DNA of 53,713 nt from Campylobacterota bacterium (GCA_034659135.1 JAYEGP010000070.1:1-53713), one strand, 5' to 3'. Shown: positions 6,388 through 32,169, counted from the first letter of the stretch. The notes: a model not told the origin generated them from the sequence alone. Numbers and translations are program-made.

Positions 6388-7659
6388 TCAATTTTTCAAA
6401 CACTCATTGATCGCGTCTATATGCATCTTGACCTCTTCATCATCACCGCCAATCTTATCCGTAACCTGCTTCATAATCTCAAGAGCTTCATCACAACGAT
6501 TTTGATGATAATAACCCCAAGCAAGAGAGTCGAGATAAAAAGCAGATGCCGGCTCAATCTCTAGTGCACGATTGACATACTTTATCCCCTCTGCAACATC
6601 AAGTTGATGATCAATCATTAGGTATCCGAGATAATTTAGCAGAAGCGGTGTCGGTTTTTCACGGATAACTTTTTTAAGCGTATGCATCACATTCTCTAGC
6701 ATCACTTTATCGTTTTTATCTTTGGCACTTTCATAAGAAAAAATAGCACTCTGTCCTAAATAACCAAGCTCACCCTCTTCTTCATACAGCTCTTTGGCAA
6801 GTTTTGCTGCTTTTTCATAATATCCCTTCTCGATATAAAGTTGTAATAATAGGGGATCACGCATGCGACTTTTTTCTAAAAATAGAAGCAGTTGTGGCAT
6901 ATTTTTTTGGTAAGAGTAAATTCGTACAATGGCTTCGCCTACCTCATCATTAGGCTCGCTTTCATACAGGCGTAAATAGGTCGATAACATTCCATCAAGA
7001 TTATTATCTTGCGAATAGAAACTCGCTAGTCTCATACATACTTTTTGTGAACAAGAGTGAAGTCTACTGTGCGACTCAAGCTGCGCAATCGCATCAGCTT
7101 TACGATCAAGATTCACATACAAAACAACTGCCATCTGATCTAAAATCGCTTCATCATAATTAATAGTATAAGCACGTTCAAGATATTTTATAGCGGTGTC
7201 GTAACGCTTCTCTTTTACGTAGATTTCACTGACTAAAAGATAATCTTCAGCCACTTTACTCTCTTCAACTAAGGCAAGTGCCTTAACCTTACCCTCATCA
7301 TATCGACTCGCCGCAATGAGTGCCAAAACCTCAAAACGTCTCACTTTAAAATCATTCGCTTCATTTTCAATATAATAAGCAGACTGCTTTAATAAAGTAT
7401 CATAATCTCCTGCAAGAGAGTAGTTTGTAAGTTCTCTATATTTGTACTCATCCTTACCTGAATTCCGGTATAACATCTCATACAGACCTGCAGCAGCCTC
7501 ATACTCTTCTCTCTCTTGGGCATAAAGCGCATAGAGAATATAAGTATCTTCTTGCTCAAAAGCTTTTTTATGACTCTGTTTGTTAAAATCGACATCGTAA
7601 TGGGTGCTACAACCTATAATAAACAGTAGCGATAATGAGAGAAAAAAGCTTTTAATCAT
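6388..7659 (-). CDS. TPR-repeat lipoprotein
   Basis: 423 aa. Lipobox LFIIGC at the N-terminus. Repeated A..Y......Y..A TPR-like periodicity. Confidence 0.65.
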   Translation of the reverse strand: MIKSFFLSLSLLFIIGCSTHYDVDFNKQSHKKAFEQEDTYILYALYAQEREEYEAAAGLYEMLYRNSGKDEYKYRELTNYSLAGDYDTLLKQSAYYIENEANDFKVRRFEVLALIAASRYDEGKVKALALVEESKVAEDYLLVSEIYVKEKRYDTAIKYLERAYTINYDEAILDQMAVVLYVNLDRKADAIAQLESHSRLHSCSQKVCMRLASFYSQDNNLDGMLSTYLRLYESEPNDEVGEAIVRIYSYQKNMPQLLLFLEKSRMRDPLLLQLYIEKGYYEKAAKLAKELYEEEGELGYLGQSAIFSYESAKDKNDKVMLENVMHTLKKVIREKPTPLLLNYLGYLMIDHQLDVAEGIKYVNRALEIEPASAFYLDSLAWGYYHQNRCDEALEIMKQVTDKIGGDDEEVKMHIDAINECLKN

Positions 7660-8032
7660 CTAATATTCCTGGACACTCACGTTTGAGCTCTTCAACACGG
7701 TTTTTGTAATAATCCCAAAAAGGAAAGGTGCGACACTGCATGGGACGTGCTTCATAAATACGGCATCCCCCATTTTCACGTTCAAAAAAAATACAGTCAT
7801 AAGAATCACCTACTTTTTTCTCTTGAAGTGAAAACTTATACGCTTTCTTGATGAGATACTCTTTATAAAATTGTGCCACATCAATGTTCAATACCTGAAT
7901 GATCTTTTCAATCTCAGATGGTGTTACAAAAATATTACCACTTTCACCTATGCAGCAACGACCGCCACAAGGTTCACATGCAGCTAAATCAAACGCATAG
8001 GGAAAATCATCTTTACGTATTATTGAAGACAT
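7652..8032 (-). CDS. YkgJ-family (UPF0153) Cys-cluster protein
   Basis: 126 aa. CEPCGGRCC motif near the N-terminus and CRIYEARPMQCRTFPFW at the C-terminus. Confidence 0.7.
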   Translation of the reverse strand: MSSIIRKDDFPYAFDLAACEPCGGRCCIGESGNIFVTPSEIEKIIQVLNIDVAQFYKEYLIKKAYKFSLQEKKVGDSYDCIFFERENGGCRIYEARPMQCRTFPFWDYYKNRVEELKRECPGILDD

Positions 8033-8092: not shown

Positions 8093-8551
8093 TCAACTTT
8101 TTAATAGCATCTCATACTCTTGCAAGATCTCTTCGTATAAAAGCTTTTCATCGACACTTTTCAGATCCAAAATATGGATATAGAGAAAATTTTCACGAAG
8201 CTCTAGGGTGATGGTACCTGGGGTTAAGGTGATAGCATTGGCAAGAAGCAATTGGTCATATTCATTATCCGAAGTCATCTTCAGCTTGATGATGCCAGGG
8301 TTGATAGGAAGTTTTGGGTTAAGGACGATCTTAGCCACTTCGATGTTGGAGAGGATGAGGTTTTTTAAAAAAAGTGGCGTGAAACGTAGATATTTAAATA
8401 GAAGATGTTTTAAATCAATATCACTCTTATCACTAAAGAAGTAAACGATAAAAACACTAACAACAGCTCCGACAATAAGTTCTTGATAATGTAAAGAGTT
8501 GCTCAAACCGATCCAGACGATAAAGAGTAATAGCGCTTTAGCCAACATCAT
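8093..8551 (-). CDS. MnhE/MrpE-like subunit (MbxA-like) of the membrane complex
   Basis: 152 aa. Two N-terminal TM helices and an ..ITLTPGTITLEL.. block typical of MrpE. It overlaps the upstream ferredoxin gene by 4 nt. Confidence 0.65.
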   Translation of the reverse strand: MMLAKALLLFIVWIGLSNSLHYQELIVGAVVSVFIVYFFSDKSDIDLKHLLFKYLRFTPLFLKNLILSNIEVAKIVLNPKLPINPGIIKLKMTSDNEYDQLLLANAITLTPGTITLELRENFLYIHILDLKSVDEKLLYEEILQEYEMLLKS

Positions 8552-8937
8552 TTATCCTTTGGTAAAAACAGAAAATTATTGCTCTGGCTGTCAGCCCAGA
8601 TACATTCGCTTTCAAGCTTGAGTGAATCAGGGGGGCAGACATCGGTACAGAGACTGCACCAGCAACAGCGGCCATAATCGATTCGTGGAATACAGCCGCT
8701 ATTATTTTTAGAGTTGCGATCGACATCAATGGGAATCATATCAATCGCTTCATTCATACAGACATCCTGACAGTTTGCACAGCCGATACAATCCTCAAGT
8801 AAATTGGTGTGAAAGCCTCGATAGCCCTCAACCTCCTCTTTTTTCTCTTGGGGATAGCAGAGGGTATCGGGATGCTCAAGTACTTTTTTAACAGCAAAAA
8901 AAGGTCCCAGTGTTCCTTTAATATCAAATTTCATCAT
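8548..8937 (-). CDS. 2x[4Fe-4S] ferredoxin subunit, NuoI/MbxN-like
   Basis: 129 aa with two CxxCxxCxxxC motifs: CIGCANCQDVC and CCWCSLCTDVCP. Confidence 0.8.
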   Translation of the reverse strand: MMKFDIKGTLGPFFAVKKVLEHPDTLCYPQEKKEEVEGYRGFHTNLLEDCIGCANCQDVCMNEAIDMIPIDVDRNSKNNSGCIPRIDYGRCCWCSLCTDVCPPDSLKLESECIWADSQSNNFLFLPKDK

Positions 8938-10044
8938 CTACCTCTCAATCTCAGGGGGACAGATGCCCAATGAGTTCATAATCATGGCGACATTAGAGAG
9001 CTCTTCATTTTCAAGAAGCGTCTCTAAGAGTGTAAAGCCATGAATCAGTGAAGGTCCTTTAACCTGCATACGACGGATATATTCACTGCCATCACCTGCC
9101 ATGTAATACCCAAATTCCCCACGTGCCGACTCTACGGCAACGTAAGTATCGTCTTTAGGCAGTTTAAACTTACGATGTTTAGGAATTTTCTGCATAATAG
9201 CGCCCTCTTTAGGCATCTGAGTTATCACTTGACGTAAAATTTTCACTGATTCACGCAGTTCGGCGCGACGTACCAAAGCACGGGCGTAAACATCGCCTCC
9301 ATCAAAGCTAGGAATCTCAAAATCAAAATTTTCATAACCCAGATAGGGATTATCACGGCGCAGATCATGTTTAATCCCGCAGCCGCGAAGCACTTGCCCG
9401 ACATAGCCATTACGCAGAGCCTCATCAGCATTGACAACACCGACACCGATGGCACGTTTTTTAAAACTGGCATTATCAAAAAAGATGCGGTCATACTCTA
9501 TCAAGCGCTTCTCAAAATAGTCCAAAAACTCGCCCAAACGCGCTAAGAAGTTCTCAGGTAATTCACGACGCACCCCACCTGGATAGATGTACATATGATA
9601 CACACGCCCACCGGTTAAGGCTTCAAAAAGGTCTAAAATAAGATCTCTATCGTAAATACTCCACTGTCCTACGGTAGCCAGACCTACCGATCCGCTCTGG
9701 CCGCCCATCCAGAGCAGTTGTGTTGCCATTCGTGCCATCTCTAATACCATCACACGGATCATTGTCGCTTTCTCACTCACTTCAATGCCTGTGAGGTTTT
9801 CAACGGCCATGGCAAAGTTTGCCTCGTTGGGATCAGGTTCGGGTACACAGATACGACAGACAATCGTAAAGGCTTGAATGATAGTACGGCGTTCAATGAG
9901 CTTTTCAAAACCACGGTGCAGATAGCCTACATGGGTTTGTGCGCGGGTGATGGTCTCACCACGCAGATCAAGTTCAACGCTCATATTTCCCGTGATACCC
10001 GGATGTTGAGGGCCATGATAGATTGTGATAATCTCACGATTCAT
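8938..10044 (-). CDS. NuoD / group-4 hydrogenase large-subunit homologue with an incomplete [NiFe] Cys set (MbxL/MbsL-like)
   Basis: 368 aa. The N-terminus YHGPQHPG...HVGYLHRGFEKL is typical of the NuoD/HycE family. The N-terminal metal motif reads RICVPE instead of RxCGxC. The C-terminal motif reads ICPPEIER instead of DPCxxCxxR. Confidence 0.85.
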   Translation of the reverse strand: MNREIITIYHGPQHPGITGNMSVELDLRGETITRAQTHVGYLHRGFEKLIERRTIIQAFTIVCRICVPEPDPNEANFAMAVENLTGIEVSEKATMIRVMVLEMARMATQLLWMGGQSGSVGLATVGQWSIYDRDLILDLFEALTGGRVYHMYIYPGGVRRELPENFLARLGEFLDYFEKRLIEYDRIFFDNASFKKRAIGVGVVNADEALRNGYVGQVLRGCGIKHDLRRDNPYLGYENFDFEIPSFDGGDVYARALVRRAELRESVKILRQVITQMPKEGAIMQKIPKHRKFKLPKDDTYVAVESARGEFGYYMAGDGSEYIRRMQVKGPSLIHGFTLLETLLENEELSNVAMIMNSLGICPPEIER

Positions 10045-10573
10045 TCTTGGCCTCCTTGAGAGCTTTCGCTTCCGCGCGGCGACGTTTCATCTCAACTTTA
10101 ACATCTCTGTTATCATCGCGTCCCCCTCTAAAGTCATAATGCTCATTGACATAAGCCAAGGTGTCAAACTCACGACGCATCGGGGGAATCTCTTTCCAAT
10201 CTTCTAAGGCAAAATCGTAAAGCGTTTCATTGCCCTCAAAATGTATCCCAAACATCTCATGAAGTTCGCGCTCCATCACTTCAATTTGTGCAAACTGATT
10301 ACTGAGTGTCGGCAGTGTCACATCATCACGTCCAATGTGAATCTCTACCATCAAATTAGCATCGCGTTTATCGGTTGTTAAAAGGTAATTGAGTGCAAAG
10401 ATTTCCTCTTCGATCCAATCGGTACATGTCAGCTGAGAGAGCGTCTTAAAATCACTGATACTTGTCACATGGGCAAGGGTTTCAAGTAGTGATTCACTGC
10501 TTACATGTAACTTATAAAGTCTTGGACTTTTTTCTACGATATCATAATGCGTTTGCAATGGTGTTATCATCAA
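10034..10573 (-). CDS. NuoC (30 kDa)/MbxK-like subunit
   Basis: 179 aa. The block ERELHEMFGIHFEGN is typical of NuoC/HycE N-domain proteins. It overlaps both neighbouring genes. Confidence 0.8.
   Translation of the reverse strand: MMITPLQTHYDIVEKSPRLYKLHVSSESLLETLAHVTSISDFKTLSQLTCTDWIEEEIFALNYLLTTDKRDANLMVEIHIGRDDVTLPTLSNQFAQIEVMERELHEMFGIHFEGNETLYDFALEDWKEIPPMRREFDTLAYVNEHYDFRGGRDDNRDVKVEMKRRRAEAKALKEAKNES
10501..10510. repeat. Iterated palindrome TTACATGTAA (exact)
   Basis: Inside the NuoC/MbxK-like CDS, read as L-H-V on the minus strand. The flank gives CTTACATGTAA. Confidence 0.95.
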
Positions 10574-11181
10574 TTCATCCCTGCAAAATTCTCTTCAAAA
10601 CGTGGGGCTATAGCGTCTCCGAAGAGTTTTTTCTGGTTTGTAAGATAAAAGTCGTAATTGTTTTTATACTTCATATATCCAGCGGTTTCACTGTCATCTT
10701 TGATCGTCTCCTGGAGTTTCACAAAACCCTCTATCAGCGCTTCGGGTCGAGGCATACAGCCATTGACATACATGTCCACAGGAAGATAATCATCAAGTTT
10801 TTTTATGGTGTTATAGCTGTCCCAATACATCCCGCCATTAATGGTGCAGCTTCCCAAACCGATGATATATTTAGGCTCATTCATCTGTTCATAAGAGCGG
10901 ATCACCCGCTTGAGCGTTTTAGGCGAACAGTACCCTGAGACAATCAAAATATCTGCTTGTCTCGGGGTCGCAACACCCACGACTCCTAAACGTTCAATAT
11001 CATAGCGGCTTGTAAAGGTTGGCGGCATCTCTATCGCCCCACATCCCGTTCCATAAGCCAGAACAAACATACTTCGTGCGCGAAACCATGCAATGGCTTT
11101 TTCAACGACACTTTGGGTACTTTTAAGCTCATGTTCTTCTGCTTCTAATGATTGGTGATACTGTGTAAATCCTTCATCCAT
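10570..11181 (-). CDS. NuoB (20 kDa)/MbxJ-like Fe-S subunit
   Basis: 203 aa. Motifs GTGCGAIEM, GSCTINGG and GCMPRPE correspond to NuoB/small-subunit cluster-binding motifs. Confidence 0.85.
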   Translation of the reverse strand: MDEGFTQYHQSLEAEEHELKSTQSVVEKAIAWFRARSMFVLAYGTGCGAIEMPPTFTSRYDIERLGVVGVATPRQADILIVSGYCSPKTLKRVIRSYEQMNEPKYIIGLGSCTINGGMYWDSYNTIKKLDDYLPVDMYVNGCMPRPEALIEGFVKLQETIKDDSETAGYMKYKNNYDFYLTNQKKLFGDAIAPRFEENFAGMN

Positions 11182-11191
11182 TTCCCACTCC

Positions 11192-12064
11192 TTAAAGCAT
11201 CAATAAACCCGCTATCCCGATAAGAGTCGGAATACGGATAAGAAACTCTACACTCTGAATCGTACTCAGACGCGCATAAACACTACCCACAAAAAGGGCA
11301 CTAATAAATAAAATAAAGGTCTTTATAATCAGATCGAGCAGTGAATCTGCTCCGCCTAAAAAAAGATTAACCATCAAAAGCAGTTTTGCAAAAGAGAAGA
11401 TAGCACTCTGACTCATTGCCAGTGCAAAAAACTTTCCACTCAATTCGCTCGCAGGCCCACTATAGACTTCAGGCGGTGCGCCGACAACATCAAAGGGTGA
11501 TTTTCCCATAAATCCCACAAAGGAGATAAACGCGGCAATAAAGAGAAGCGGATGCGCCATCATGTTACATGTAAGACTCTGATTGGCCATAATAACATTC
11601 AGATCGGCACTCTCATTGGCAATCATCAATCCAATGGTGGCGATATAAAAGGGAAGCTCCAGCCCAATAAGCCGACTCAGTCCCCGTGTCACACCCATAA
11701 CACCAAAGGGGTTACCATTACTTCCCACACCCAAGGCATTTCCAAGTGGACCAAGTACCATAAGGTATAAGATCACAATGAGATTACCATAGGAACTAAA
11801 ACCTTGCAGTGTCACACCATCATTAAAAAAAGGAATAAAAAGCACGGTCATCATCGCACCCGAAGCCATGATAATCACACCCGCGTAAAACATCCAGCCA
11901 AAAGAGGTGCTGCTACTTTTTAAAAAGAGCTTGATACTATCAAAAAAAGATTGGGCGATCGAAGGCCCAAAGCGTTTATGAATACGCGCGGTGATGTTAC
12001 GATAGAGTCCGTAATATAAAAAGCCAAAACTATAAGCCATAAAGAGCATCAAGAGACTATCCAT
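11192..12064 (-). CDS. NuoH/HycD/MbxM-like membrane subunit
   Basis: 290 aa, polytopic. The N-terminal RIHKRFGPSIAQSFFDSIKLFLK resembles the NuoH signature. Confidence 0.7.
   Translation of the reverse strand: MDSLLMLFMAYSFGFLYYGLYRNITARIHKRFGPSIAQSFFDSIKLFLKSSSTSFGWMFYAGVIIMASGAMMTVLFIPFFNDGVTLQGFSSYGNLIVILYLMVLGPLGNALGVGSNGNPFGVMGVTRGLSRLIGLELPFYIATIGLMIANESADLNVIMANQSLTCNMMAHPLLFIAAFISFVGFMGKSPFDVVGAPPEVYSGPASELSGKFFALAMSQSAIFSFAKLLLMVNLFLGGADSLLDLIIKTFILFISALFVGSVYARLSTIQSVEFLIRIPTLIGIAGLLML
11565..11574. repeat. Iterated palindrome TTACATGTAA (exact)
   Basis: Inside the NuoH/MbxM-like CDS, read as L-T-C-N. The flank gives TTACATGTAAG. Confidence 0.95.
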
Positions 12065-13680
12065 TAGGCGACTCCTATCATGAGTAAAAGGGTAAAGAAG
12101 AGTAAAATAAGGATCGCGACATTTTGGACACAGAGCTTATAAAAACTTTGAATCAGCCCAGAACTCTCACCCGCCATACGGCTCACACGAGACCAAAAAC
12201 GCGCAGAAGTGTGTCGTAAGATGAGACCGATAAAACTGATACGACGTAACTCCTCTCCCATTCCAAAACCGTAATGCAGGTTTTTACTCTCATGAGGAAC
12301 TTCGCCACAATAGCTGATATCGAGTCGATCTTTGGGTAAAACCGCTTTGGAACTCAGACGCATCACACCGAGAAGAATCAGCACAAAAAGCGTGCCAAAT
12401 ACCGCCATCAACACGCCACCATTAAAGGAGGCAAATGGGGTGCTAAGTTCAAAAAGAGAGCCGACACTTTGCGCCTCTAAGCCTAAACTGAGAAGAATCT
12501 CATTAAAAAAGCTACGTGGTAAGGCGGGCAAAATACCCAAAACAACTAAGATAACAGCGCTAAAAACTTGAGGGATATAGAAGCTTTTAGGAACATCTAA
12601 ATACTCTTGATGATGGCTAGGCTGTCCGAGATAGATGCCATAAACCAATTTATAGCAATATAAAAAGGCCGATGCCGAACTAAACATCACCGCAGTCAGC
12701 AAGAGCGCTTTTTGCGATGATAAGAGTGAGGTGTAGATAAGAAACTTACTGTTAAAACCACCCAAGAGTGGCATACCTGCTAAAACAATAATCCCAATGA
12801 CCAAAAGTACAAACAGAAGTGGAAATTTATAAATCAAGGCACCCAGATCACTAAAAGCAGTCTTACCGCTAATGGCAATCACGGTAGCGATATTAACAAA
12901 AAGCAGCAGTTTCACCAGGGTATGAATGAGCGTGTGATAGAGCGCCGCTTCAATGGCAACACTGTTAAGCAGGGCTAAAACAGTAATAATATAACCCAAC
13001 TGCGCCATAGATGAGTAGGCTAAAAGACGTTTCATCTCATTTTCATTAATGGCTTTAAAAGTGGCAACAATCGAAGTGAGTACCCCCATCCACGCCATAA
13101 AGTCAAATACCACTTCAGGAGTGTTGCTGCCTTTTAAAATCTGTGTAAAAAAGAGAATAAAAACAAAAATACCCGCTTTAGAAAGGATAGCACTCAGCAG
13201 TGCGCTAAAAAGATCATCGGCCTGCTCATAGCTATCCACCATCCAGTGATGCAGGGGCATTACACCTGACTTGACAAAGATAGCGATAAGAAGTAACAGA
13301 GCGATGGCAATGCTGAGATTTTCAGAAATAGCCGAAGCATCAATAGCCTCATAAAGCATACTTCCCCCATAGCTGTAGATAAGCACAATCGCACCCAAAA
13401 GTGAAAACGCTCCCGCAAGATTGAAGATTATATACTTCTGTAAAATCGCTTTTTGTGCACTTTTAGCAAGAATAAAATAACTACTCCATCCCATGATCTC
13501 CCATCCGATAAACAGAGTTATCATATCCGCGGCGTAAAAGATCATGCCCAGCCCCAAAAGCAGAAGCAGATGCAGGAAAAAATCATGCTGTTTTGACTTC
13601 ACTATGAACAGTGTCACAAAGACAAAGAGAGAGAGTCCAAAAAAGAGATGTCCAAGCATGGTCGCTTCAAAGTGAAACAT
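12064..13680 (-). CDS. Antiporter-like (NuoL/M/N, MrpD family) subunit, second copy (MbxH'-like)
   Basis: 538 aa, polytopic. It has the Proton_antipo_M-type core (..WEIMGWSSY.., ..LAYSSMAQLGYI..). Confidence 0.8.
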   Translation of the reverse strand: MFHFEATMLGHLFFGLSLFVFVTLFIVKSKQHDFFLHLLLLLGLGMIFYAADMITLFIGWEIMGWSSYFILAKSAQKAILQKYIIFNLAGAFSLLGAIVLIYSYGGSMLYEAIDASAISENLSIAIALLLLIAIFVKSGVMPLHHWMVDSYEQADDLFSALLSAILSKAGIFVFILFFTQILKGSNTPEVVFDFMAWMGVLTSIVATFKAINENEMKRLLAYSSMAQLGYIITVLALLNSVAIEAALYHTLIHTLVKLLLFVNIATVIAISGKTAFSDLGALIYKFPLLFVLLVIGIIVLAGMPLLGGFNSKFLIYTSLLSSQKALLLTAVMFSSASAFLYCYKLVYGIYLGQPSHHQEYLDVPKSFYIPQVFSAVILVVLGILPALPRSFFNEILLSLGLEAQSVGSLFELSTPFASFNGGVLMAVFGTLFVLILLGVMRLSSKAVLPKDRLDISYCGEVPHESKNLHYGFGMGEELRRISFIGLILRHTSARFWSRVSRMAGESSGLIQSFYKLCVQNVAILILLFFTLLLMIGVA

Positions 13681-15064
13681 GAGAAACTCCTAACATCGCT
13701 TTCGCGGCTTCGTGTGTGAGCTCTAGAAGCGCTTCTGGCATCACGCCAAGCCCAAGTAGCACAAGCATCATCACACCTAAAAGTGCGCCTTGATTCCATG
13801 ATAGTGAGAGCGCTTCTTTCTCACCCTTATGCCGTAAGCCACCCAGAAGTCTAAAAAGATAGGCCGCTTCAACAAGTGAGATGCTCAAGATGAGTCCTAT
13901 CATGAGATAGGCTTCTTGACTTGCCAGACCTTTTAAGATACTCAACTTGGCAATAAAACCGGCAAAGGGAGGAATGCCAAGCAAGGATAAAAAACCCACA
14001 ATAAAGACCAGTCCAAGAAAAAGTGATTCAAACTGGGTAAAAATGACACTTTTGGTACTCTTAAAGTGATGCTCTAAAATATCCAAACCCATAAAAAGCA
14101 TTATCTTAGCAATCGCATGCACTACGATCAAAAAGAGTGCCGCGCTCACCAAAACCTCATCGGCAAAACTCAGTGCTAAGAAAATCACCCCAATCTGACC
14201 TAAGCTTGAATACGCAAAAACACGTTTAAGCTCACTACTTTTAAGCGCCGAAAACTCTGCTACGCCAAACGAGATGATCCCGATCACACTTAAAAAAGCC
14301 AACTGTTCACTGCTTACATGTAAGAGATAGACCAGATGAAAGAAGAGAAAGAGATAACTCTTAGAGAGCATGGCACTAAAAAGTCCACCAACACTACTTC
14401 GTGAGGCCTGATAAATATCAGCCACCCAGAGATTGAGTGGAAATATCTCTGCTTTGATTCCAAATCCGATAAACAAACAGAGTAAGATTAAAAATTGTAG
14501 TGAGGCTTCAAGGGTATGAAAACGCTCCGCAATAAGCGTAAGATTGAGCGCACCCGTGCCTAAGTAGATCAGCATAATCGCTAAAAGTAAAAAGAGTGAT
14601 GCGATCATCCCGATAATCATATAGCGAATCGCACCGCCATAAGCCTTGGCATCACGGTTAAGTGAGGTTAAGATATAAGCACTGATACTCGCTATCTCAA
14701 AAAAGATATAGATATTAAAGATATCATGGCTCATAACCAGACCAAAGACACCCACACTGAGCATATTAGTCGTAATGAAGAGTGCTTTATCTGAAGGTGC
14801 ATTCAGACGATAGAGTGAAAATACCAGCATCATACTCGAAAAGAGCATGACAAAGAGTGCAGAAGCCTGATCGAGGACAAAACTGATGGCCAGAGGGGAG
14901 TCAAAAGCGATACGTTCAACGATAGGGAGTGATTCATAAAGCGAAATGCTCATCATGACAAGCAGACCATAGAGCATGAGCGCCACGAGATTGAGCCATC
15001 TAAGGAAAAAAGGGCTTAAGAAACTTAGCAGCAGTGGTAAAGCGATAAAGTAGAGCAGACTCAT
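13667..15064 (-). CDS. Antiporter-like (MrpD/NuoN family) subunit (MbxH-like)
   Basis: 465 aa, polytopic. Blocks ..FAYSSLGQIGVI.. and ..FFEIASISAY.. are present. Confidence 0.8.
   Translation of the reverse strand: MSLLYFIALPLLLSFLSPFFLRWLNLVALMLYGLLVMMSISLYESLPIVERIAFDSPLAISFVLDQASALFVMLFSSMMLVFSLYRLNAPSDKALFITTNMLSVGVFGLVMSHDIFNIYIFFEIASISAYILTSLNRDAKAYGGAIRYMIIGMIASLFLLLAIMLIYLGTGALNLTLIAERFHTLEASLQFLILLCLFIGFGIKAEIFPLNLWVADIYQASRSSVGGLFSAMLSKSYLFLFFHLVYLLHVSSEQLAFLSVIGIISFGVAEFSALKSSELKRVFAYSSLGQIGVIFLALSFADEVLVSAALFLIVVHAIAKIMLFMGLDILEHHFKSTKSVIFTQFESLFLGLVFIVGFLSLLGIPPFAGFIAKLSILKGLASQEAYLMIGLILSISLVEAAYLFRLLGGLRHKGEKEALSLSWNQGALLGVMMLVLLGLGVMPEALLELTHEAAKAMLGVSHVSL
14314..14323. repeat. 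Iterated palindrome TTACATGTAA (exact, full 12-mer CTTACATGTAAG)
   Basis: Inside the MbxH-like antiporter CDS, read as L-H-V. Confidence 0.95.
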
Positions 15065-15447
15065 TGACGCTCTCCAAGCTCATCCATCTTATCGACCTGC
15101 ATGTGCCCACTCAGTTTATAATAGCGCATCACAAAGGAGAGCGCCAACGCTAAAACGGCTAAGGCGATAACGATCGTTGTGAGTATCATCGCCTGAGGCA
15201 CAGGATCAACCATCTGTGAGCTAAACTTTTGAATCTCACCGCTAAGAATAGGTGCACTTTTACCGACTTCAAAATGATGACCGATAAAGAAGAGAAAGAG
15301 ACTTCCCTCTGCTATAGAGAGGGCTAAAAAGATTTTAAAAAGATTTTTTTTCGCCATCGCGCCCACTAAACCAATAGCAAAGATACTAAAAGAGCCGATC
15401 GTGACGATGAACTCAACACTGCGCGTCTCGTTTAACAGATCAAGCAT
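15061..15447 (-). CDS. MnhC/NuoK-like subunit (MbxG-like)
   Basis: 128 aa with three TM helices. It overlaps both neighbouring genes. Confidence 0.7.
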   Translation of the reverse strand: MLDLLNETRSVEFIVTIGSFSIFAIGLVGAMAKKNLFKIFLALSIAEGSLFLFFIGHHFEVGKSAPILSGEIQKFSSQMVDPVPQAMILTTIVIALAVLALALSFVMRYYKLSGHMQVDKMDELGERQ

Positions 15448-16138
15448 GTTCTGCCTTTATGAAGAGTTCTGCCATGGCAGCAATTTCAGCGGCAACTTTT
15501 AATCCTACAAAGATATAGATAATTTCCAAGACACCCCCGCTAAAAAGTGTACCGATCTCACCCAAAGGAAGAAAATTCTCAAAAAAGCGACCTGTCACGA
15601 TAAGTCCTAAAACACCCACAAGGATAAAGCCAGCGCCGCTGAGTGCCTCAACAAGCTTGATGATACGTTCACTTAAATGGTAATCATCCCCGTGAGTGAG
15701 AAAAAGAAGTAAAAATCCACTCGCAATGATAACACCGCCTTGAAAACCTCCACCCGGACTCAAATGTCCATGTAAGATGATATAAATACCAAACAGTAAG
15801 ATCAAAGGGAAAAGAACCTTTGTACCGATTTTAAGCAGCGCATTATCAAATGAAAAAATATTTCGCTCATGTTTTTTGATACCTAAAGAGAGACCAAAGA
15901 TACTTAAAAACAGTATACTCACCTCACCCAAGGTATCGAGCCCACGAAAATAGGTAACAACAGAGGTCACGGCATTGGCACTTTGGGTTGCGGCACTATT
16001 GATCTCTAGTAGTTCCTTACCTAAAGTCATAGCGCTATGGGGTGTGTGAAGTAAAACACCAAGCAGAACAATACTCATGAGTGAAACGAGCAGAGAGACG
16101 AGAAGAGTCTGAACTCTAAGGCTACGTTTAAGACTCAT
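15440..16138 (-). CDS. MnhB-like membrane subunit
   Basis: 232 aa, polytopic. The block GHLSPGGGFQGGVI is typical of MnhB domains. Confidence 0.7.
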   Translation of the reverse strand: MSLKRSLRVQTLLVSLLVSLMSIVLLGVLLHTPHSAMTLGKELLEINSAATQSANAVTSVVTYFRGLDTLGEVSILFLSIFGLSLGIKKHERNIFSFDNALLKIGTKVLFPLILLFGIYIILHGHLSPGGGFQGGVIIASGFLLLFLTHGDDYHLSERIIKLVEALSGAGFILVGVLGLIVTGRFFENFLPLGEIGTLFSGGVLEIIYIFVGLKVAAEIAAMAELFIKAEHA

Positions 16139-16380
16139 TCGCGCTCCCTTTTATCGGTCTGCATTAAGGCGACTAAAAATACGACACTGCTGATTCCCGC
16201 GCCGATAACCGCTTCTGTCAAAGCGACATCTGGCGCACTGAAAAGGACATATAAGAGGGTACTTCCCAAACCAAAACCCATAAACAAAATGACCGCCGTT
16301 GCGAGTTCACGAGAGAGCACAATCATCACAGCCGTAATAATGAGCGCAGCAAAGACGGCAGCAATCAAAAATCCGATCAT
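16135..16380 (-). CDS. DUF4040 / MnhB N-terminal-like small membrane subunit (MbxD-like)
   Basis: 81 aa with 3 TM helices. The segment APDVALTEAVIGAGIS is typical of DUF4040. Confidence 0.6.
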   Translation of the reverse strand: MIGFLIAAVFAALIITAVMIVLSRELATAVILFMGFGLGSTLLYVLFSAPDVALTEAVIGAGISSVVFLVALMQTDKRERE

Positions 16381-16694
16381 GACTCTTCCTTGTACGCATC
16401 GACACGGCTTTTATTGAAAAAACCGCGTCGTAGGTAGTGTGAGCGTGCTAGAATTGATGAAGAGAGCGGATTGCTTAAGAGAATAAAGAGCGCTAAGAGC
16501 AGTAGTTTAAACCAAAGCGATGGCTCAAAACCGATGGCACCGATAATAATAAGAACGGTCCCTAGTGTAGACGCTTTAGTCGCCGCATGCATTCGTGTGA
16601 TAGCATCGGGCATTCGTAACAGACCGAGCGTCGCAATCAGAAGAAACAGGGTTCCAGTGGCAATGAAAATCGTGGCTATAAACTCAAGCATCAT
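16377..16694 (-). CDS. MnhG/MrpG-like subunit (MbxC-like)
   Basis: The track ORF 16377..16784 overlaps the MnhF-like gene by 100 nt. An internal start at MMLEFIATIF.. (about 16694-16703) gives the usual MnhG N-terminus with LLRMPDAITRMHAATKASTLG. Confidence 0.7.
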   Translation of the reverse strand: MMLEFIATIFIATGTLFLLIATLGLLRMPDAITRMHAATKASTLGTVLIIIGAIGFEPSLWFKLLLLALFILLSNPLSSSILARSHYLRRGFFNKSRVDAYKEES

Positions 16695-16938
16695 TACCCT
16701 CATTAAGATTAAAACGTGCAAAGACGATCGTACCGATAAAACCGATGAGTGCAAACACAAAGGCGATATCAAGATAGAATTCACTCTTACATGTAACCGA
16801 AAGTACCACTAAAAGTGAAACCGTGATGATTCCCATCGTATCAAAAGCAAGAATACGATCACTTAAAAACGGGCCGCGTAAAAACTGAATAAAGGCGAGA
16901 AAGATGGCGCCAATGATAAGTAGAGTTAAAATTTCCAT
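16684..16938 (-). CDS. MnhF/MrpF-like subunit (MbxB-like), first gene of the operon
   Basis: The track ORF reaches 16983, but MEILTLLIIGAIFLAFIQFLRGPFLSDRILAFD (ATG at 16938) is the canonical MnhF start. Confidence 0.7.
   Translation of the reverse strand: MEILTLLIIGAIFLAFIQFLRGPFLSDRILAFDTMGIITVSLLVVLSVTCKSEFYLDIAFVFALIGFIGTIVFARFNLNEGNDA
16787..16796. repeat. Iterated palindrome TTACATGTAA (exact)
   Basis: Inside the MnhF-like CDS, read as V-T-C-K. The flank gives CTTACATGTAA. Confidence 0.95.
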
Positions 16939-17070
16939 ATAACCTATTCCATTAAAATTACTGTATCTTATCAAAAAATGCATACATTATGATTACGAAA
17001 ATGCTTCATTTTCAAGCAAACTGTAATCTTAGAGTGCTATGATACGAAAAATAATAAATAAGAGAACATT

Positions 17071-18423
17071 ATGATGAAAATAACTAAAACAGATATATTG
17101 ATTATTGGTGGCGGCCCTTCTGCTATGGTGACAGCGATGACGGCACTAGAGAACTACCCAAACAAGAAAATCACCGTTATCAAAAAAGAGAAGGTTGGCT
17201 TGGTGCCCTGTGGGATTCCTTATATCTTTGGAACCACACTTGGCAGTAGCGATAAAGATGCATCATCATGTGGAGGACCTGCTTCAAAGAGCATTAATGT
17301 CATCGTCGATGAAGTGACTTCAGTTGATATCGAATCAAAAACGGCACACGCCAATGATCATACCGTCACTTTTGACAAGCTCGTTTTTGCTACAGGATCC
17401 ATCCCTTTTGTACATGAGAGTTTTCAAAAATCACTGGCCCTTGATAATGTATTTACCATTGACAAAGATAAAGATAAAATAGATGTTATTAAGAGTTATC
17501 TTGAAACCTGTAAAAGTGTGATTGTTGTAGGGACAGGGTTTATCGGTGTTGAGATGGCAGAGCAGCTTAAAAGTGATGCTAAAGAGGTGACACTGATTGG
17601 AGGACGCCATATTTTAGCGGATTCATTCGATACCGATATGGCTAAAAAAGGTGAGGCGATCATCCAAGACCTTGGAATTAAGCTCGCATTAGGCCAACAC
17701 GCTTCTGAGGTCATCCATGATGAGACTAGAGCACGTGGCGTCATCTTGCAAGATGGCTCAAAAATCATGGGTGATGCGATCATCTTAGCGACAGGCTACC
17801 AGCCAAATACCACTTTAGCTAAAAAAGCCGGACTCAAACTCGCACGTTATAACGGTATCTGGGTTGATGAGTACATGCGCACACGCAATAAAGACATTTT
17901 TGCCGTAGGTGACTGCTCTGGTCGTCGTGATTTTATTACGCGTGATCCATCAAAAGTGATGCTGGCGTCCACCTCAGCCGCTGAAGCACGTGTGGCAGGT
18001 ATCTCCCTCTATGGTTTAAAACACCTTAAAGGTTTTAACGGAACCATCGCCATCTTCTCCACAATGATTGGAGATAGAGCCTTTGGAAGTGCGGGAGTCA
18101 CAGAGGTTCAGGCACAAAAAGAGCAGATCGATTATGTTTCAGGATATTTTGAAGGCATCAACCGCCATCCAAGCACGATCCCTGATGCATCCAAGCAGTC
18201 CGTAAAACTTATCGCCTTACGAAATAGCGGTCAGATTATCGGTGGACAAGTGATCGGGGACAAAGAAGCCGGAGAGATCATCAATATCATCGGTCTTGCC
18301 ATTGAAGCAGAGCTTACCGCACACCAACTCGTCTCACTTCAAGTTGCGACACAACCCCTGCTCACCTCAGCACCAACAACCTATCCCATCGTTAAGGCAG
18401 CACAACAGATTATAAGTTCTTAA
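17071..18423 (+). CDS. FAD-dependent pyridine nucleotide-disulfide oxidoreductase of the NADH oxidase / CoA-disulfide reductase / NSR type (single active-site Cys)
   Basis: 450 aa. FAD fold ILIIGGGPSAM, single redox Cys in GLVPCGIPYIF, second Rossmann fold VIVVGTGFIGVEMA, and AVGDC near the end of the FAD domain. Confidence 0.8.
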   Translation: MMKITKTDILIIGGGPSAMVTAMTALENYPNKKITVIKKEKVGLVPCGIPYIFGTTLGSSDKDASSCGGPASKSINVIVDEVTSVDIESKTAHANDHTVTFDKLVFATGSIPFVHESFQKSLALDNVFTIDKDKDKIDVIKSYLETCKSVIVVGTGFIGVEMAEQLKSDAKEVTLIGGRHILADSFDTDMAKKGEAIIQDLGIKLALGQHASEVIHDETRARGVILQDGSKIMGDAIILATGYQPNTTLAKKAGLKLARYNGIWVDEYMRTRNKDIFAVGDCSGRRDFITRDPSKVMLASTSAAEARVAGISLYGLKHLKGFNGTIAIFSTMIGDRAFGSAGVTEVQAQKEQIDYVSGYFEGINRHPSTIPDASKQSVKLIALRNSGQIIGGQVIGDKEAGEIINIIGLAIEAELTAHQLVSLQVATQPLLTSAPTTYPIVKAAQQIISS

Positions 18424-19115
18424 ATGTGACACTTGATACTATGGGTTTTTGCTTTCTTGTAAAGATGCTGTGCCTCTGGTGAAAACATTTCACCATCAAA
18501 AGCAAAAAAAGGCGACCAGGTTTTCATTAAAGATTTTGAATTTTTCCTTACATGTAACATCACCAGACTCGCTGGACGATCTGCTTTTGGATGGACAAAC
18601 TGTGCATCAACCACACGCATATTGACCTTATCTAATGCCGCGCAGATTAGTCCAAACTGCTGAGGATCATAACAGAAAATAAAATGTCCTTTTGGCTTAA
18701 GAAGTTTCGAAACCTTGAAAAAAAACTCATCTAAAGGGAGCGACGTGTTTGAACGCGCGGTTGCGATCATGTCGTGTTCACTTCGTGACGCTCCCTCATG
18801 GTAAAAAGGAGGATTGGAAACGATATAGTCATAAGGCTCTTCTGATGTAAAGTCTCTTAGATCGGTATGATGGATATGATAGGCTATCTTATTGACCTTA
18901 GCATTTTTCGAGGCGTAATGAACAAACTCTTTTTGTAACTCAACCGCCTCAAGATTGACTCTTGGAAAATCTCTAGCCACCAAAAGGCCTAAAACACCAC
19001 TTCCTGCTCCCACATCTAACATACGACCTCTTGGCTCAAACTGACTAATGAATCCATATAAAAAGATCGAATCACTGTTGTATCGATACCCATCAAGAGG
19101 TTGATAAAGTTGCAT
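18420..19115 (-). CDS. SAM-dependent N6-adenine methyltransferase, TrmN6/YfiC-like
   Basis: 231 aa. Motifs DGYRYNSDSIFL, DVGAGSGVLGL (motif I) and IVSNPPFY (motif IV). Confidence 0.7.
   Translation of the reverse strand: MQLYQPLDGYRYNSDSIFLYGFISQFEPRGRMLDVGAGSGVLGLLVARDFPRVNLEAVELQKEFVHYASKNAKVNKIAYHIHHTDLRDFTSEEPYDYIVSNPPFYHEGASRSEHDMIATARSNTSLPLDEFFFKVSKLLKPKGHFIFCYDPQQFGLICAALDKVNMRVVDAQFVHPKADRPASLVMLHVRKNSKSLMKTWSPFFAFDGEMFSPEAQHLYKKAKTHSIKCHI
18548..18557. repeat. Iterated palindrome TTACATGTAA (exact)
   Basis: Inside the methyltransferase CDS, read as L-H-V. The flank gives CTTACATGTAA. Confidence 0.95.
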
Positions 19116-19123
19116 TTATAGCC

Positions 19124-19133
19124 TTACATGTAA
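19124..19133. repeat. Iterated palindrome TTACATGTAA (exact)
   Basis: Intergenic. It is 8 nt upstream of the minus-strand ATG of the methyltransferase gene (19115). In that orientation it reads TTACATGTAAGGCTATAAATG. Confidence 0.95.
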
Positions 19134-19168
19134 TAATGATGAAATTATACTCTTACTAAGGTTCTAAG

Positions 19169-19888
19169 ATGATTATCATACCTGCACGACTTGCCTCAAC
19201 ACGTTTTCCTCAAAAGGTTTTAGCCGATATCGGTGGACTTCCAATGGTAGTTCGAACTGCCAATCGTGTCAAGCATCTTGATCGTGTTGTTGTTGCAGCA
19301 GATGATGAACTCATCATCGCTACATGTAAAGCACATGGCATTGAAGCGATGCTCACCTCAACCACGCATAAAAGTGGCACCGATCGTATCAATGAATGCG
19401 CTCAAATACTTGATGTTGACGATGATGAACTCATCATCAATGTCCAAGCGGATGAACCCTTCATAGAAGCCGAAGTGGTAGAGAACCTTATCACGCGTCT
19501 TAAAACACTTCAAAAAGCCAAAGCAGACTTTGTTATGGGAAGCTGCTACAACGCCATCAATGCCGAAGCTGCACAAGATGCCAACCTTGTGAAAGTTGTC
19601 TTAGATGATGTGCATAATGCTATCTATTTTTCGCGTTCCCCTATTCCTTTTAACCGAAGTGGCAGTGCGGTCTATTTTGGGCATATCGGTATTTATGGCT
19701 TTAGTAAAAAAAGTCTGCATGATTTTTGTGGACTTGATGATGCACCGATTGAAGATATTGAAAAACTTGAACAGCTTCGCGCTATCTATCATGGTAAAAA
19801 AATCTCCATGGTAAAAGTAGCGAGTACGGGTTTTGGAATTGATACAATTGAAGATTTGGAGCGTGCTAAGGAGATCTACCAACTATAA
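19169..19888 (+). CDS. kdsB: 3-deoxy-manno-octulosonate cytidylyltransferase (CMP-KDO synthetase)
   Basis: 239 aa. Motifs IIIPARLASTRFPQKVL, HKSGTDRI and NVQADEPF. Confidence 0.9.
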   Translation: MIIIPARLASTRFPQKVLADIGGLPMVVRTANRVKHLDRVVVAADDELIIATCKAHGIEAMLTSTTHKSGTDRINECAQILDVDDDELIINVQADEPFIEAEVVENLITRLKTLQKAKADFVMGSCYNAINAEAAQDANLVKVVLDDVHNAIYFSRSPIPFNRSGSAVYFGHIGIYGFSKKSLHDFCGLDDAPIEDIEKLEQLRAIYHGKKISMVKVASTGFGIDTIEDLERAKEIYQL

Positions 19889-19894: not shown

Positions 19895-21433
19895 TTAGTT
19901 TACTAAATGCTTCCTTTGTGTCAAAGCTTTAACAAGTGATGCGAGTATGGAATGAAATGAATCACTATTGAGATTTATATTCTGTTTGAGTAGCTTAAGA
20001 TTTTTCTCTATCTCACTACGCTCTTCTTGACTTACTAGATAGACCTCTTCAGCTTTTTTAAAAGCCATAGCATCATTATCACGAAGTTTTTTTGCTTTTA
20101 AAAGATGTGATTTAGCTTTGGCAAAATCATGAGCGTACTGTTTTTCATCATTTTGTAATTCAAGTTCAAGCTTATGATCCATTTTTCCTTTACTCTCTTC
20201 ACGCATTTTATAACGTAGGTTTTCAAGTTTATTATTAAGTTCACGCGCTTGAATCGACTGTTTTTTATAGTGTTCCTCATTTAAACTTAGCTGTTTCTTT
20301 TTATTATTATAAGTATCTTCTATCTCTTTAAAATGCTCTTTCTTATTATCGAGTTCTACTAATAATGATCGGTATTTATTTCTTGAATTAATCCACATTT
20401 TGGCGATGGAGAGTACTGAATTAGAGTTCCAGTGCTTACCATCAGGAGTTGTCAGTTCGGGAATAGCGTAACGTTTGCCTCCCTCAATATAGATTTTTCC
20501 AGAGTAGTATCTCAAAAACTTTTCAGCATTTTCACTTTTCAATGTGATCTGCTCAAAAATTTCTGTTGCCATTCTTTGATGCACATCCATAAAATGCTTT
20601 CTAAAAATAAATCCGGCAAAACCGATAAGATAGTTTTTATTTTGAGAAACATAATAGGAGAGTTCTAAAGCTATTTGTGCTCGAATCAGTGAGAGCACAT
20701 GCTTTTCATAATAGTCATTACTAATCTCATCAAAATTTAATTTCTCTTGGAACAGCACAGCCATCACACCATCTAAAAATGTATCTAGGTCTTGTTCTAA
20801 AAAGAACTCATTGTAATGATTTTCAAGATTTTGGGGTTCATAACCATTAAAGCGACGTTCAGATTGATCAATCTCGCTGGGTGCCTTTACCTCTTTTTCA
20901 AGATGAGGCATTGCTTGGAAAATTTTAATGAGGTATTTGCGTTTTTGATTTAAGATGACATCACGATCAGAAAGTCCAAGGGCTTTTTTGATAGCAAATT
21001 GAACGAGCGCTTTTTTATTAACATGCTCATCTGTTTCGGCAAGTTCAGCATTCATAGCACGGCGAGTTCTTCCAAAAATTGCGATTTGATCTTCTCTACC
21101 CTGATAGGGGTAGTCAATATTTCTACGACTGTTTTTAATGATCGTGATAAGTGATTGCAAATGAGAAGAGTCTTGTGGGTTAAGAGAGTAGGGAGTGATT
21201 TTAAATGCTACGCCTTTGTCTAAAGAGAAGCGAAATATCAAAGATCCTGCAGATTCAAAAAAATCACGAAAAGCAATCTTAATTTCACGACTATTTTGCT
21301 CAATTTCAGTATCGCTGTATCGTGACTGGAGATAGTGAAGCAGTGCAAAATTCTCATGTCCGCCCCACTCTTGATTTTTTTTTGGAGTGCTGAGTTTACG
21401 TTTTAAATATCGAAGCGTATCTTGATATATCAC
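19895..21433 (-). CDS. Hypothetical 512-aa protein with a C-terminal coiled-coil, last gene of the Che/Sia supercluster
   Basis: Long ORF whose start overlaps the HD-GYP stop by 4 nt. I recognise no domain. The C-terminal ~170 aa are K/E-rich heptad-like sequence. Confidence 0.5.
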   Translation of the reverse strand: MIYQDTLRYLKRKLSTPKKNQEWGGHENFALLHYLQSRYSDTEIEQNSREIKIAFRDFFESAGSLIFRFSLDKGVAFKITPYSLNPQDSSHLQSLITIIKNSRRNIDYPYQGREDQIAIFGRTRRAMNAELAETDEHVNKKALVQFAIKKALGLSDRDVILNQKRKYLIKIFQAMPHLEKEVKAPSEIDQSERRFNGYEPQNLENHYNEFFLEQDLDTFLDGVMAVLFQEKLNFDEISNDYYEKHVLSLIRAQIALELSYYVSQNKNYLIGFAGFIFRKHFMDVHQRMATEIFEQITLKSENAEKFLRYYSGKIYIEGGKRYAIPELTTPDGKHWNSNSVLSIAKMWINSRNKYRSLLVELDNKKEHFKEIEDTYNNKKKQLSLNEEHYKKQSIQARELNNKLENLRYKMREESKGKMDHKLELELQNDEKQYAHDFAKAKSHLLKAKKLRDNDAMAFKKAEEVYLVSQEERSEIEKNLKLLKQNINLNSDSFHSILASLVKALTQRKHLVN

Positions 21434-32166: not shown

Positions 32167-32169
32167 AAT

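Follow-up and report, generated by a model that had tools for sequence, protein, structure and literature searches.

The membrane-bound sulfane reductase (MBS, also Mbx) has, to our knowledge, been characterized biochemically and structurally in one hyperthermophilic archaeon only, and it is discussed mainly as an evolutionary relic en route to complex I. The hallmarks of the Pyrococcus furiosus enzyme are a proximal [4Fe-4S] cluster held by three Cys, with the Cys-bearing loop of MbsJ shortened, the retention in MbsL of just C85 and C385 out of the four NiFe cysteines, the loss of the quinone ligands H38 and Y87 of Nqo4, and the presence of both MrpA- and MrpD-type pumps (PMC7684303). The family is thus known and structurally solved, and bacterial Mbx-like operons have also been noted before (PMC4758237, PMC11636981, PMC6349859). 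These include the 'mbx-like' operons with a GltD-like flavoprotein in Thermotoga and some proteobacteria (Degli Esposti 2015, PMC4758237), a putative Mrp-Mbx complex in the gammaproteobacterial Riftia symbiont Candidatus Endoriftia persephone that is co-expressed with the rTCA (reverse tricarboxylic acid) cycle, with sulfur-globule proteins and with hydrogenases (Mitchell et al. 2024, PMC11636981), and the energy-converting hydrogenase-related (Ehr) complexes, which are group-4-hydrogenase-like with incomplete NiFe ligands and coupled Mrp-like subunits (PMC6349859). Here, we describe a locus at positions 8093–16983 (minus strand) of a 53,713-nucleotide stretch of DNA from Campylobacterota bacterium (GCA_034659135.1, JAYEGP010000070.1:1-53713; the whole stretch, 53.7 kb, is referred to as the window), where 13 consecutive, closely packed open reading frames (ORFs) are found. 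Comparison of their products supports placing the encoded complex, as a bacterial representative, in the MBS (Mbx) family, whose members are respiratory enzymes of Mrp descent that resemble complex I.

A 13-gene minus-strand operon had been proposed here in an initial annotation, and all 13 ORFs were recovered at those positions and assigned to Pfam families, in transcription order MrpF_PhaF, PhaG_MnhG, MbhD, MnhB/MbhE, Oxidored_q2 (NuoK/MnhC-like), Proton_antipo_M twice (465 and 538 amino acids), NADHdh (NuoH), Oxidored_q6 (NuoB), Complex1_30kDa (NuoC), Complex1_49kDa (NuoD), a 2x[4Fe-4S] protein and MNHE. The E-values range from 1e-18 to 1e-69, with 3e-6 for the small ferredoxin domain. The features of the operon, from its upstream end, are as follows.

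16986–17015, minus strand: promoter-like site TTGAAA-18-CATAAT, from a consensus scan (10 of 12 positions; a pattern match only), in the 87-bp divergent intergenic region
16684–16938, minus strand: MrpF-like small membrane subunit (F), by position the MbsB equivalent (PF04066, 1.1e-18); longest ORF to 16983, probable start Met16 at 16938
16377–16694, minus strand: MnhG/PhaG-like subunit (G), MbsC equivalent (PF03334, 2.7e-23); longest ORF to 16784, probable start 16694 or 16691
16135–16380, minus strand: MbhD-family subunit, MbsD equivalent (PF13244, 2e-20)
15440–16138, minus strand: MnhB/MbhE-like subunit, MbsE equivalent (PF04039, 3.1e-24; PF20501, 5e-5)
15061–15447, minus strand: NuoK/MnhC-like subunit, MbsG equivalent (PF00420, 3.8e-18)
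13667–15064, minus strand: antiporter-like H (MrpD/MbsH type), putative H+ pump; top PDB match 6u8y_H, 1.2e-49, full length
12064–13680, minus strand: second antiporter-like subunit, H' (MrpA-N/MbsH' type), short form; top PDB match 6u8y_X, 2.3e-53
11192–12064, minus strand: NuoH-like membrane anchor (M), MbsM equivalent (PF00146, 6e-44; 6u8y_M, 1.9e-36)
10570–11181, minus strand: NuoB-like subunit J, predicted carrier of the proximal [4Fe-4S] cluster (6u8y_J, 8.9e-61; conserved C47, C112 and C142)
10034–10573, minus strand: NuoC-like subunit K (PF00329, 1.1e-19)
8938–10044, minus strand: NuoD/[NiFe]-large-subunit-like L, without a NiFe site (6u8y_L, 2.8e-90)
8548–8937, minus strand: 2x[4Fe-4S] NuoI-like N, presumed ferredoxin entry, 129 amino acids (6u8y_N, 7.7e-18; Pfam Fer4 families)
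8093–8551, minus strand: MnhE-like subunit, MbsA equivalent, last gene (PF01899, 1.2e-37; 6u8y_A, 1.7e-26)

If the longest ORFs are taken, the first two genes overlap by 101 nt, which is an artifact of that choice. Because homologs of F and G are 82–85 and 104–107 amino acids long, respectively, and the promoter-like site ends at 16986, the probable starts are at 16938 (F) and 16694 (G), and the real overlap probably amounts to 11 nt; it would be 8 nt if G begins at the neighboring Met (16691). The junctions that follow measure −4, −4, −8, −4, −14, −1, +10, −4, −11, 0, and −4 nt, such that the genes overlap by 1–14 nt, abut, or are separated by a 10-nt gap, much as the initial annotation had described them. 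A shared regulatory motif was sought by comparing 16930–17075 with the corresponding region of a related locus (L003), which gave a poor alignment, one weak 9-nt inverted repeat, and nothing usable. We know of no SurR-type regulation of an operon of this type.

All solved structures were searched for relatives of subunits L, J, M, N, H, H', and MnhE, and the top relative of each was the MBS of P. furiosus (PDB code 6U8Y), by wide margins. For L, the match to MbsL (2.8e-90) is followed by Nqo4 (2.7e-70), MbhL (2.5e-37), and HycE (9e-27), and for J the MBS subunit (8.9e-61) is followed by plant NdhK (1.2e-36), Nqo6 (3.8e-32), and MbhJ (2.2e-26). The margins are of the same kind for M (6u8y_M, 1.9e-36, versus 7e-16 for HycD and 4e-14 for MbhM), N (6u8y_N, 7.7e-18, with the runner-up at 1.2e-8), and H' (6u8y_X, 2.3e-53, versus 1.6e-29 for MbhH). 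The two antiporter-like subunits, to which the initial annotation had drawn attention, each find their own MBS counterpart (H with 6u8y_H and H' with 6u8y_X).

The residue hallmarks of MBS are present as well, and together with these matches they sustain the Mbx/MBS architecture first proposed for the locus. In J, the motif YGTGCGAIEM aligns without gaps with FCTGCGGIEM of MbsJ, and the loop is therefore of equal length; C47, C112, and C142 are the only conserved Cys residues among 72 bacterial homologs, the single Cys of the motif being invariant, and the proximal cluster of J is accordingly predicted to be a three-Cys cluster. In L, the segments RIC66VPE69 and GIC362PPE365IER stand in place of the RxCGxC and DPCxxCxxR of hydrogenases, with Glu replacing the second Cys of each pair, so that the equivalents of MbsL C85 and C385 (C66 and C362) are kept, and the positions of Nqo4 H38 and Y87 are occupied by T18 and V67. 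The charged axis of the pumps is also conserved, both in H' (the E128, K248, and H336 equivalents) and in H (Glu in TM5, Lys, and His). The likeness to P. furiosus MBS thus extends over the 13-subunit inventory, the two antiporter-like subunits, the J motif and its loop length, the two vestigial Cys of L, and the absence of the quinone His/Tyr pair. Other than for the position of the MnhE (MbsA) gene, which stands last and not first, the gene order is that of mbsABCDEGHH'MJKLN.

The locus also differs from P. furiosus MBS in several respects. L is ∼50% identical to MbsL and carries an extra Cys (Cys63) that creates a CxxC motif, C63-R-I-C66, where MbsL has Leu (LLLRIC). This Cys is invariant across the bacterial clade, and the segment TIVCRICVPEPDP, which includes it, is conserved in Campylobacterota, Chromatiaceae, and Spirochaetales, with one Fibrobacter-labeled metagenome-assembled genome (MAG) deviating in the last residues. 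The bacterial clade has Gly where MbsJ carries the non-ligand Cys25, and N is considerably shorter than MbsN (129 versus 208 amino acids), lacking its C-terminal extension. H' is also shorter than its counterpart (538 versus 618 amino acids); in the subclade of the window it is without ∼41 N-terminal residues (about one transmembrane helix) relative to Sulfurospirillum and Chromatiaceae, a shortening common to loci L003 and L006, and H in this subclade is likewise ∼20–35 amino acids shorter. The shortening of H' and H recurs in several genomes and is therefore no artifact of assembly. Finally, the hosts of operons of the window type are mesophilic bacteria, mostly sulfur oxidizers, whereas those of MBS are hyperthermophilic fermenters.

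A search of the whole library with L returned three full-length clusters (at 50% identity) above 300 bits, followed by a drop to NuoD- and Fpo-type proteins. In a neighbor-joining tree of this single subunit (bootstrap values out of 100), L of the window groups with its bacterial relatives in a single clade (99/100), to which the protein P0121 is sister (99/100). MbsL of P. furiosus and P0123 join next (81/100), whereas the group 4 hydrogenases form a clade of their own (99/100) and Nuo and Fpo fall outside. The initial annotation had named a position of L, J, and K within the group 4 hydrogenases or Nuo as the outcome that would speak against an MBS-type complex; L was found to group with MbsL instead.

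A scan of one genome per species revealed 376 stretches that encode relatives of L. Among the best 80 of these, the Campylobacterota carriers are Sulfurovum (with the isolate CS9 among them), Sulfurimonas, Sulfuricurvum, Nitratifractor, Hydrogenimonas, and Arcobacteraceae, and the carriers from cultured Chromatiaceae are Imhoffiella, Thiorhodococcus, Allochromatium warmingii, A. palmeri, Thiocystis, Thiococcus, Chromatium okenii, C. weissei, and Thiocapsa imhoffii; Ectothiorhodospiraceae and Spirochaetales are represented by MAGs, and one further MAG is labeled Fibrobacter. Two more cultured carriers were added, Sulfurospirillum sp. 1612 by a protein search and, within the Chromatiaceae, Thioflavicoccus mobilis by a separate search. 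The order F-G-D-B-C-H-H'-M-J-K-L-N-E was found in every locus long enough to judge, and because the identical 13-gene order recurs in dozens of independent genomes, chance is excluded as its origin. The terminal position of the MnhE gene, correctly remarked upon in the initial annotation, is shared by all complete bacterial loci and, as judged from these loci, is a signature of the whole bacterial clade; in the two nearest outgroup loci (L087 and L088) the gene comes first, as in Thermococcales. L of Campylobacterota and Chromatiaceae is ∼67–71% identical and the two groups are mutual nearest relatives, from which lateral transfer among sulfur bacteria may be inferred.

The surroundings of the operon differ between genomes and include genes for methyl-accepting chemotaxis proteins (MCPs), GST-like proteins, a type ISP restriction enzyme, acetyl-CoA synthetase, and ABC transporters. 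In Sulfurovum PC08 and its relatives (L005, L006, and L012), the operon is flanked by genes of glycogen metabolism and glycolysis (GH57, PGI, PFK, pyruvate kinase, sugar-nucleotide, and phosphomutase genes). A number of Chromatiaceae loci (L002 and L061, both Allochromatium warmingii, and L067, L069, and L079) stop after L, the genes for N and MnhE being missing there, and a 1000-amino acid type ISP restriction-modification gene directly follows L in Chromatium okenii (including a further assembly) and in a MAG labeled Thiocystis violascens. These loci may be undergoing decay, or else their N and E genes may lie at another site.

The nearest outgroup, the P0121 locus (L087), was taken as the representative of the 'mbx-like' operons. 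It shares with the locus of the window the Mrp module, the NuoH/B/C/D-like genes, and the vestigial Cys of L, and in the tree its group is the sister of the clade that holds the window's L. It differs in that MnhE comes first, H and H' are fused into one gene (1046 amino acids), and, in place of the plain 2x[4Fe-4S] NuoI-like N, a 593-amino acid Fer4 plus GltD-like flavoprotein is encoded, followed by a DHO_dh-family gene. From this composition, the L087 type looks like a ferredoxin/NAD(P)-linked Mbx variant. The putative Mrp-Mbx complex of Endoriftia resembles the present case as an Mbx-type complex in a bacterial sulfur oxidizer. Ehr is a loose umbrella class of varied composition, whereas the complex of the window belongs specifically to the MBS/Mbx subtype.

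The better known relatives are more distant. The membrane-bound hydrogenase (MBH) of P. furiosus (PDB code 6CFW) and the group 4 hydrogenases have in common with the window an Mrp-derived arm and a NuoB/C/D/H/I-like, ferredoxin-oxidizing module, but MBH possesses a single antiporter-like subunit, its L carries four NiFe Cys, its proximal cluster is held by four Cys, and its matches are much weaker; assignment to the group 4 hydrogenases was rejected, as L lacks the four-Cys set of NiFe ligands. Complex I (Nuo/Nqo) and Fpo share the homologous Q-module fold, the NuoH anchor, and antiporter-like pumps. The window differs from them in having no NuoEFG, no NuoA/J/L-type arm, no quinone ligands, and a single Cys in J where theirs are in tandem; assignment to complex I (Nuo) was rejected since the tandem Cys of N2, the quinone ligands, and the NuoA/J/K/L/M/N arm are all absent. 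All seven subunit types of the Mrp (Mnh/Pha) antiporter have counterparts here in an Mrp-like order, but that antiporter has no redox module, whereas NuoH/B/C/D/I-like genes lie between the MrpA-like H' and mnhE in the window. With these five genes embedded in an overlapping operon, a stand-alone Mrp antiporter was also rejected.

Divergent from the operon, across the 87-bp intergenic region, lies the gene of a flavoprotein.

17071–18423, plus strand: CoADR/NSR-like pyridine-nucleotide-disulfide oxidoreductase, 450 amino acids, divergent (Pfam Pyr_redox_2 and dimerization domain; GC content at third codon positions (GC3) 0.41)

Its PDB matches are the persulfide-reductase-type NoxA-3 (6PFZ, 1.4e-46), CoADR of P. 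furiosus (5L1N, 4.3e-40), and a CoA-persulfide reductase (8A56), and the active-site Cys context VPCGIPY is present. The protein is therefore a candidate accessory persulfide/polysulfide reductase. The 13 operon genes and this gene have a GC3 of 0.35–0.50, compared with 0.21–0.35, and mostly below 0.30, in the flanking genes, the exception being an M48 peptidase gene 2.5 kb downstream (0.39); the next two genes past the flavoprotein gene (18420–19888) are intermediate (0.33–0.35). The region 8093–18423 is thus a GC3-rich compositional island, which suggests that the operon and the CoADR-like gene were acquired together by lateral transfer. A YkgJ-type CxxCxxCC gene (7652–8032, minus strand; putative Zn/Fe-chelating), located 60 nt downstream of mnhE, was left out of the system because it falls outside the island (GC3 of 0.27) and recurs behind the operon in just one other locus (L025).

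The mbs and nsr genes are S0-induced genes in Thermococcales. Among the loci compared, the flavoprotein gene is the most recurrent neighbor of the operon, tied with the MCP family, and is found at five other loci, always within 190 nt and in four arrangements. In one lineage, seen at the metagenome loci L108, L110, L141, and L154, it has a canonical nuo operon starting on one side and the 3' end of the MBS-type operon on the other, forming a compact respiratory island. At six further metagenome loci (L105, L113, L114, L124, L125, and L148), relatives of the flavoprotein stand directly upstream of a different complex-I-like operon with a CC-type NuoB, which encodes a fused NuoCD of ∼567 amino acids, with a vestigial Cys (RLCFMDN) and SLYICQGDLDR at its end, followed by NuoH, NuoI, and three antiporter-like proteins; this operon may be of the 'ancestral Nuo' type discussed for Nautiliales.

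Collectively, these comparisons make it moderately probable that the complex functions as an ion-pumping ferredoxin:sulfane-sulfur (polysulfide or persulfide) reductase running in the forward, energy-conserving direction, with both the acceptor and the direction inferred. In such a scheme, ferredoxin that had been reduced, for instance, by pyruvate or 2-oxoglutarate:ferredoxin oxidoreductases would deliver electrons to the two [4Fe-4S] clusters of N, from where they would pass to the proximal [4Fe-4S] cluster of J. Since, by sequence, this cluster has only three Cys ligands, it would present an open iron, which, by homology to P. furiosus MBS, could bind and reductively cleave the S–S bond of a polysulfide or organic persulfide within a hydrophobic chamber formed by L, J, and M. 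The redox energy would then drive H+/Na+ translocation through H and H', whose relevant residues are conserved, together with the Mrp-type module of small subunits, and the neighboring CoADR/NSR-like flavoprotein may reduce or detoxify short persulfide products with NAD(P)H. The complex would thereby let sulfur bacteria conserve energy by reducing sulfane sulfur in the cytoplasm while they are in an anoxic or fermentative phase. The forward direction is favored by the adjacency of the operon to glycolysis and glycogen genes in the Sulfurovum PC08 lineage, and by the straightforward role that anoxic, fermentative phases would offer it. Among these is the reduction of stored sulfur in the dark, which is long known in purple sulfur bacteria.

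Several observations weigh against this assignment. The hosts are mostly sulfur oxidizers, which leaves the direction of electron flow uncertain. A periplasmic molybdenum polysulfide reductase is also encoded in the cave Sulfurovum (genome paper), and S0 reduction would therefore not depend on an MBS-type complex. The acceptor chemistry may differ from that of P. furiosus, given the extra Cys of L (CxxC), the lack of MbsJ C25, the shorter N, and, in this subclade, the shorter H'. The flavoprotein gene adjoins the operon in only ∼6 of ∼45 informative loci. In the reciprocal direction, 80 metagenomic loci with flavoprotein relatives of 52–76% identity were collected, 61 of them with at least 1.5 kb of flank, and in these 61 the relatives adjoin a canonical CC-type nuoB operon 16 times and MBS-type genes 8–10 times. 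The link between flavoprotein and complex is hence suggestive and non-exclusive.

The uncertainty over direction is the basis of the first alternative, that the complex runs in reverse as an ion-gradient-driven sulfide/persulfide:ferredoxin oxidoreductase. An H+/Na+ gradient would push electrons from sulfide, polysulfide, or persulfide (∼−270 mV) to ferredoxin (∼−420 to −500 mV), with the CxxC of L maybe handling an organic persulfide carrier, and the complex would be the missing source of low-potential ferredoxin; we regard this as unlikely. Complex-I-type machines are reversible in principle, the pump subunits H and H' are both intact, and the carriers (Sulfurovum, Sulfurimonas, Sulfuricurvum, Nitratifractor, Chromatiaceae, and Ectothiorhodospiraceae) are overwhelmingly sulfur oxidizers. 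If true, reverse operation would supply ferredoxin both to the rTCA cycle of microaerobic Campylobacterota and to the nitrogenase or dark metabolism of purple sulfur bacteria. The rTCA cycle, which is ferredoxin-dependent, fixes CO2 in autotrophic Epsilonproteobacteria (cave Sulfurovum genome paper), and the putative Mrp-Mbx of Endoriftia is co-expressed with it, its in vivo direction being listed as unknown by the authors (PMC11636981). The Endoriftia complex, however, was absent from the top 120 hits to L of Chromatiaceae or Campylobacterota, and a link to the expression data on it, the only such data we know of for a bacterial Mbx, was not established. The glycolysis and glycogen genes next to the operon in Sulfurovum PC08 fit fermentative ferredoxin oxidation better than reverse flow. 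Moreover, Chromatiaceae fix CO2 by the Calvin cycle, such that the rTCA argument does not reach them, and we know of no MBS that has been shown to run in reverse.

The conserved CxxC of L is also the starting point for a second alternative, which keeps the forward direction and changes the acceptor. Here, C63 and C66, presumed to lie near the cluster, would act on a protein or low-molecular-weight organic disulfide or persulfide, for which CoA persulfide, glutathione-amide persulfide, and a sulfur-carrier protein are candidates, much as ferredoxin:thioredoxin reductase (FTR) or heterodisulfide reductase does. The conservation of Cys63 from Campylobacterota to Chromatiaceae and Spirochaetales, where P. 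furiosus MbsL has Leu, is consistent with such chemistry, the recurrent CoADR/persulfide-reductase-like neighbor points to thiol-persulfide carriers, and the authors of the MBS work allow an inorganic or organic internal disulfide and liken the chemistry to that of FTR (PMC7684303). The same study found activity unchanged in P. furiosus mutants of both vestigial Cys of MbsL and of MbsJ C25 (PMC7684303), and no candidate carrier gene is conserved beside the operon in the loci compared. Overall, we consider an organic acceptor of this kind to be quite improbable.

A further possibility, to which we attach little weight, is the original Mbx model of a ferredoxin:NAD(P)+ oxidoreductase, with the NAD(P)H feeding CoADR/NSR-like sulfur reduction. 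It draws on the nearest outgroup, the P0121 locus, where a Fer4 and GltD-like NAD(P)-binding flavoprotein replaces N as in the 'mbx-like' operons of PMC4758237, and on the fact that the top recurrent neighbor is a pyridine-nucleotide oxidoreductase. That neighbor is nevertheless missing from most loci, none of the 13 subunits has a nucleotide- or flavin-binding domain, and the reported direct sulfane reduction at the cluster, with dimethyl trisulfide as the model substrate, supersedes the older model (PMC7684303).

Just as slight is the chance that the complex works as a ferredoxin:menaquinone oxidoreductase and so represents a minimal complex I or an enzyme like Fpo. The fold and the chamber are common to complex I (PMC7684303), NuoD-type proteins rank next after MBS for L, and databases call L an NADH-quinone oxidoreductase. 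Conversely, the quinone-binding His38 and Tyr87 of Nqo4 are Thr and Val in L, the tandem-Cys N2 motif of NuoB is reduced to a single Cys in J, the membrane arm is of Mrp type and not of NuoA/J/K/L/M/N type, and a separate canonical nuo operon exists in related genomes. An H2-evolving group 4 [NiFe] hydrogenase of the Mbh/Ech/Hyf type is very improbable, since the weak likeness of L residues 44–109 to the NiFeSe_Hases Pfam model (E-value of 2.9e-4, below the curated cut-off) is set against Glu at two of the four NiFe-ligating Cys positions in every member of the clade, far weaker matches to MbhL and HycE than to MbsL, a separate hydrogenase clade in the L tree, and the absence of hyp genes from the 53.7-kb window. 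Residues and composition thus disfavor the NAD(P)+, menaquinone, and hydrogenase readings alike.

Every ORF of at least 120 amino acids across the window was scanned, and among these no NuoEFG, formate dehydrogenase, or hyp genes were found, in agreement with the initial annotation; apart from the operon, there are chemotaxis, flagellar, stringent-response, and housekeeping genes. A large chemotaxis cluster (26603–37583, minus strand) encodes a 914-amino acid CheA, CheW-like proteins, of which one has a CZB zinc-binding domain, CheR, CheB, a pair of single-domain response regulators, a HEAT-repeat protein, a 628-amino acid MCP-like protein, and a PAS protein. Two paralogous pairs of DUF6272 and SiaC-family genes, which belong to partner-switching regulatory phosphoproteins, are located at 2813–3739 (plus strand) and 22241–23176 (minus strand), the latter adjoining a response-regulator phosphodiesterase-like gene (21430–22227), and a SpoIIE/PP2C phosphatase gene (219–824) is found at the edge of the window. 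At 901–2533 (plus strand), a HipA-like kinase gene (421 amino acids) is followed by an overlapping 126-amino acid ORF without a Pfam match, and the two may form a toxin-antitoxin-type module.

Searches of open-access papers and preprints found no paper that ties Mbx/MBS to Sulfurovum, Sulfurimonas, Sulfurospirillum, Nautilia, or Chromatiaceae, which agrees with the earlier statement that the function is uncharacterized in epsilonproteobacteria. The named homologs of L are all annotated as NADH(:ubi)quinone oxidoreductase/dehydrogenase subunit D (49 kDa), and because of this label metabolic reconstructions overlook an MBS-type complex; the genome paper on a cave Sulfurovum that carries the operon mentions just a type-1 NADH dehydrogenase. 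The bacterial clade described here is well conserved, bears the mechanistic hallmarks of MBS, and occurs in many mesophilic sulfur bacteria, among them cultured isolates such as Sulfurovum sp. CS9, Sulfurospirillum sp. 1612, Thioflavicoccus mobilis, and species of Thiocystis, Allochromatium, Chromatium, and Thiococcus. If active, the complex would provide cytoplasmic, ferredoxin-linked, ion-pumping sulfane-sulfur reduction (or oxidation) in organisms thought to use only periplasmic molybdenum polysulfide reductases, and would be a candidate for the enzyme with which purple sulfur bacteria reduce their stored sulfur anaerobically in the dark. The supply of ferredoxin in sulfur oxidizers that use the rTCA cycle would likewise become experimentally approachable, and the physiological context of the complex could prove more interesting than homology suggests.

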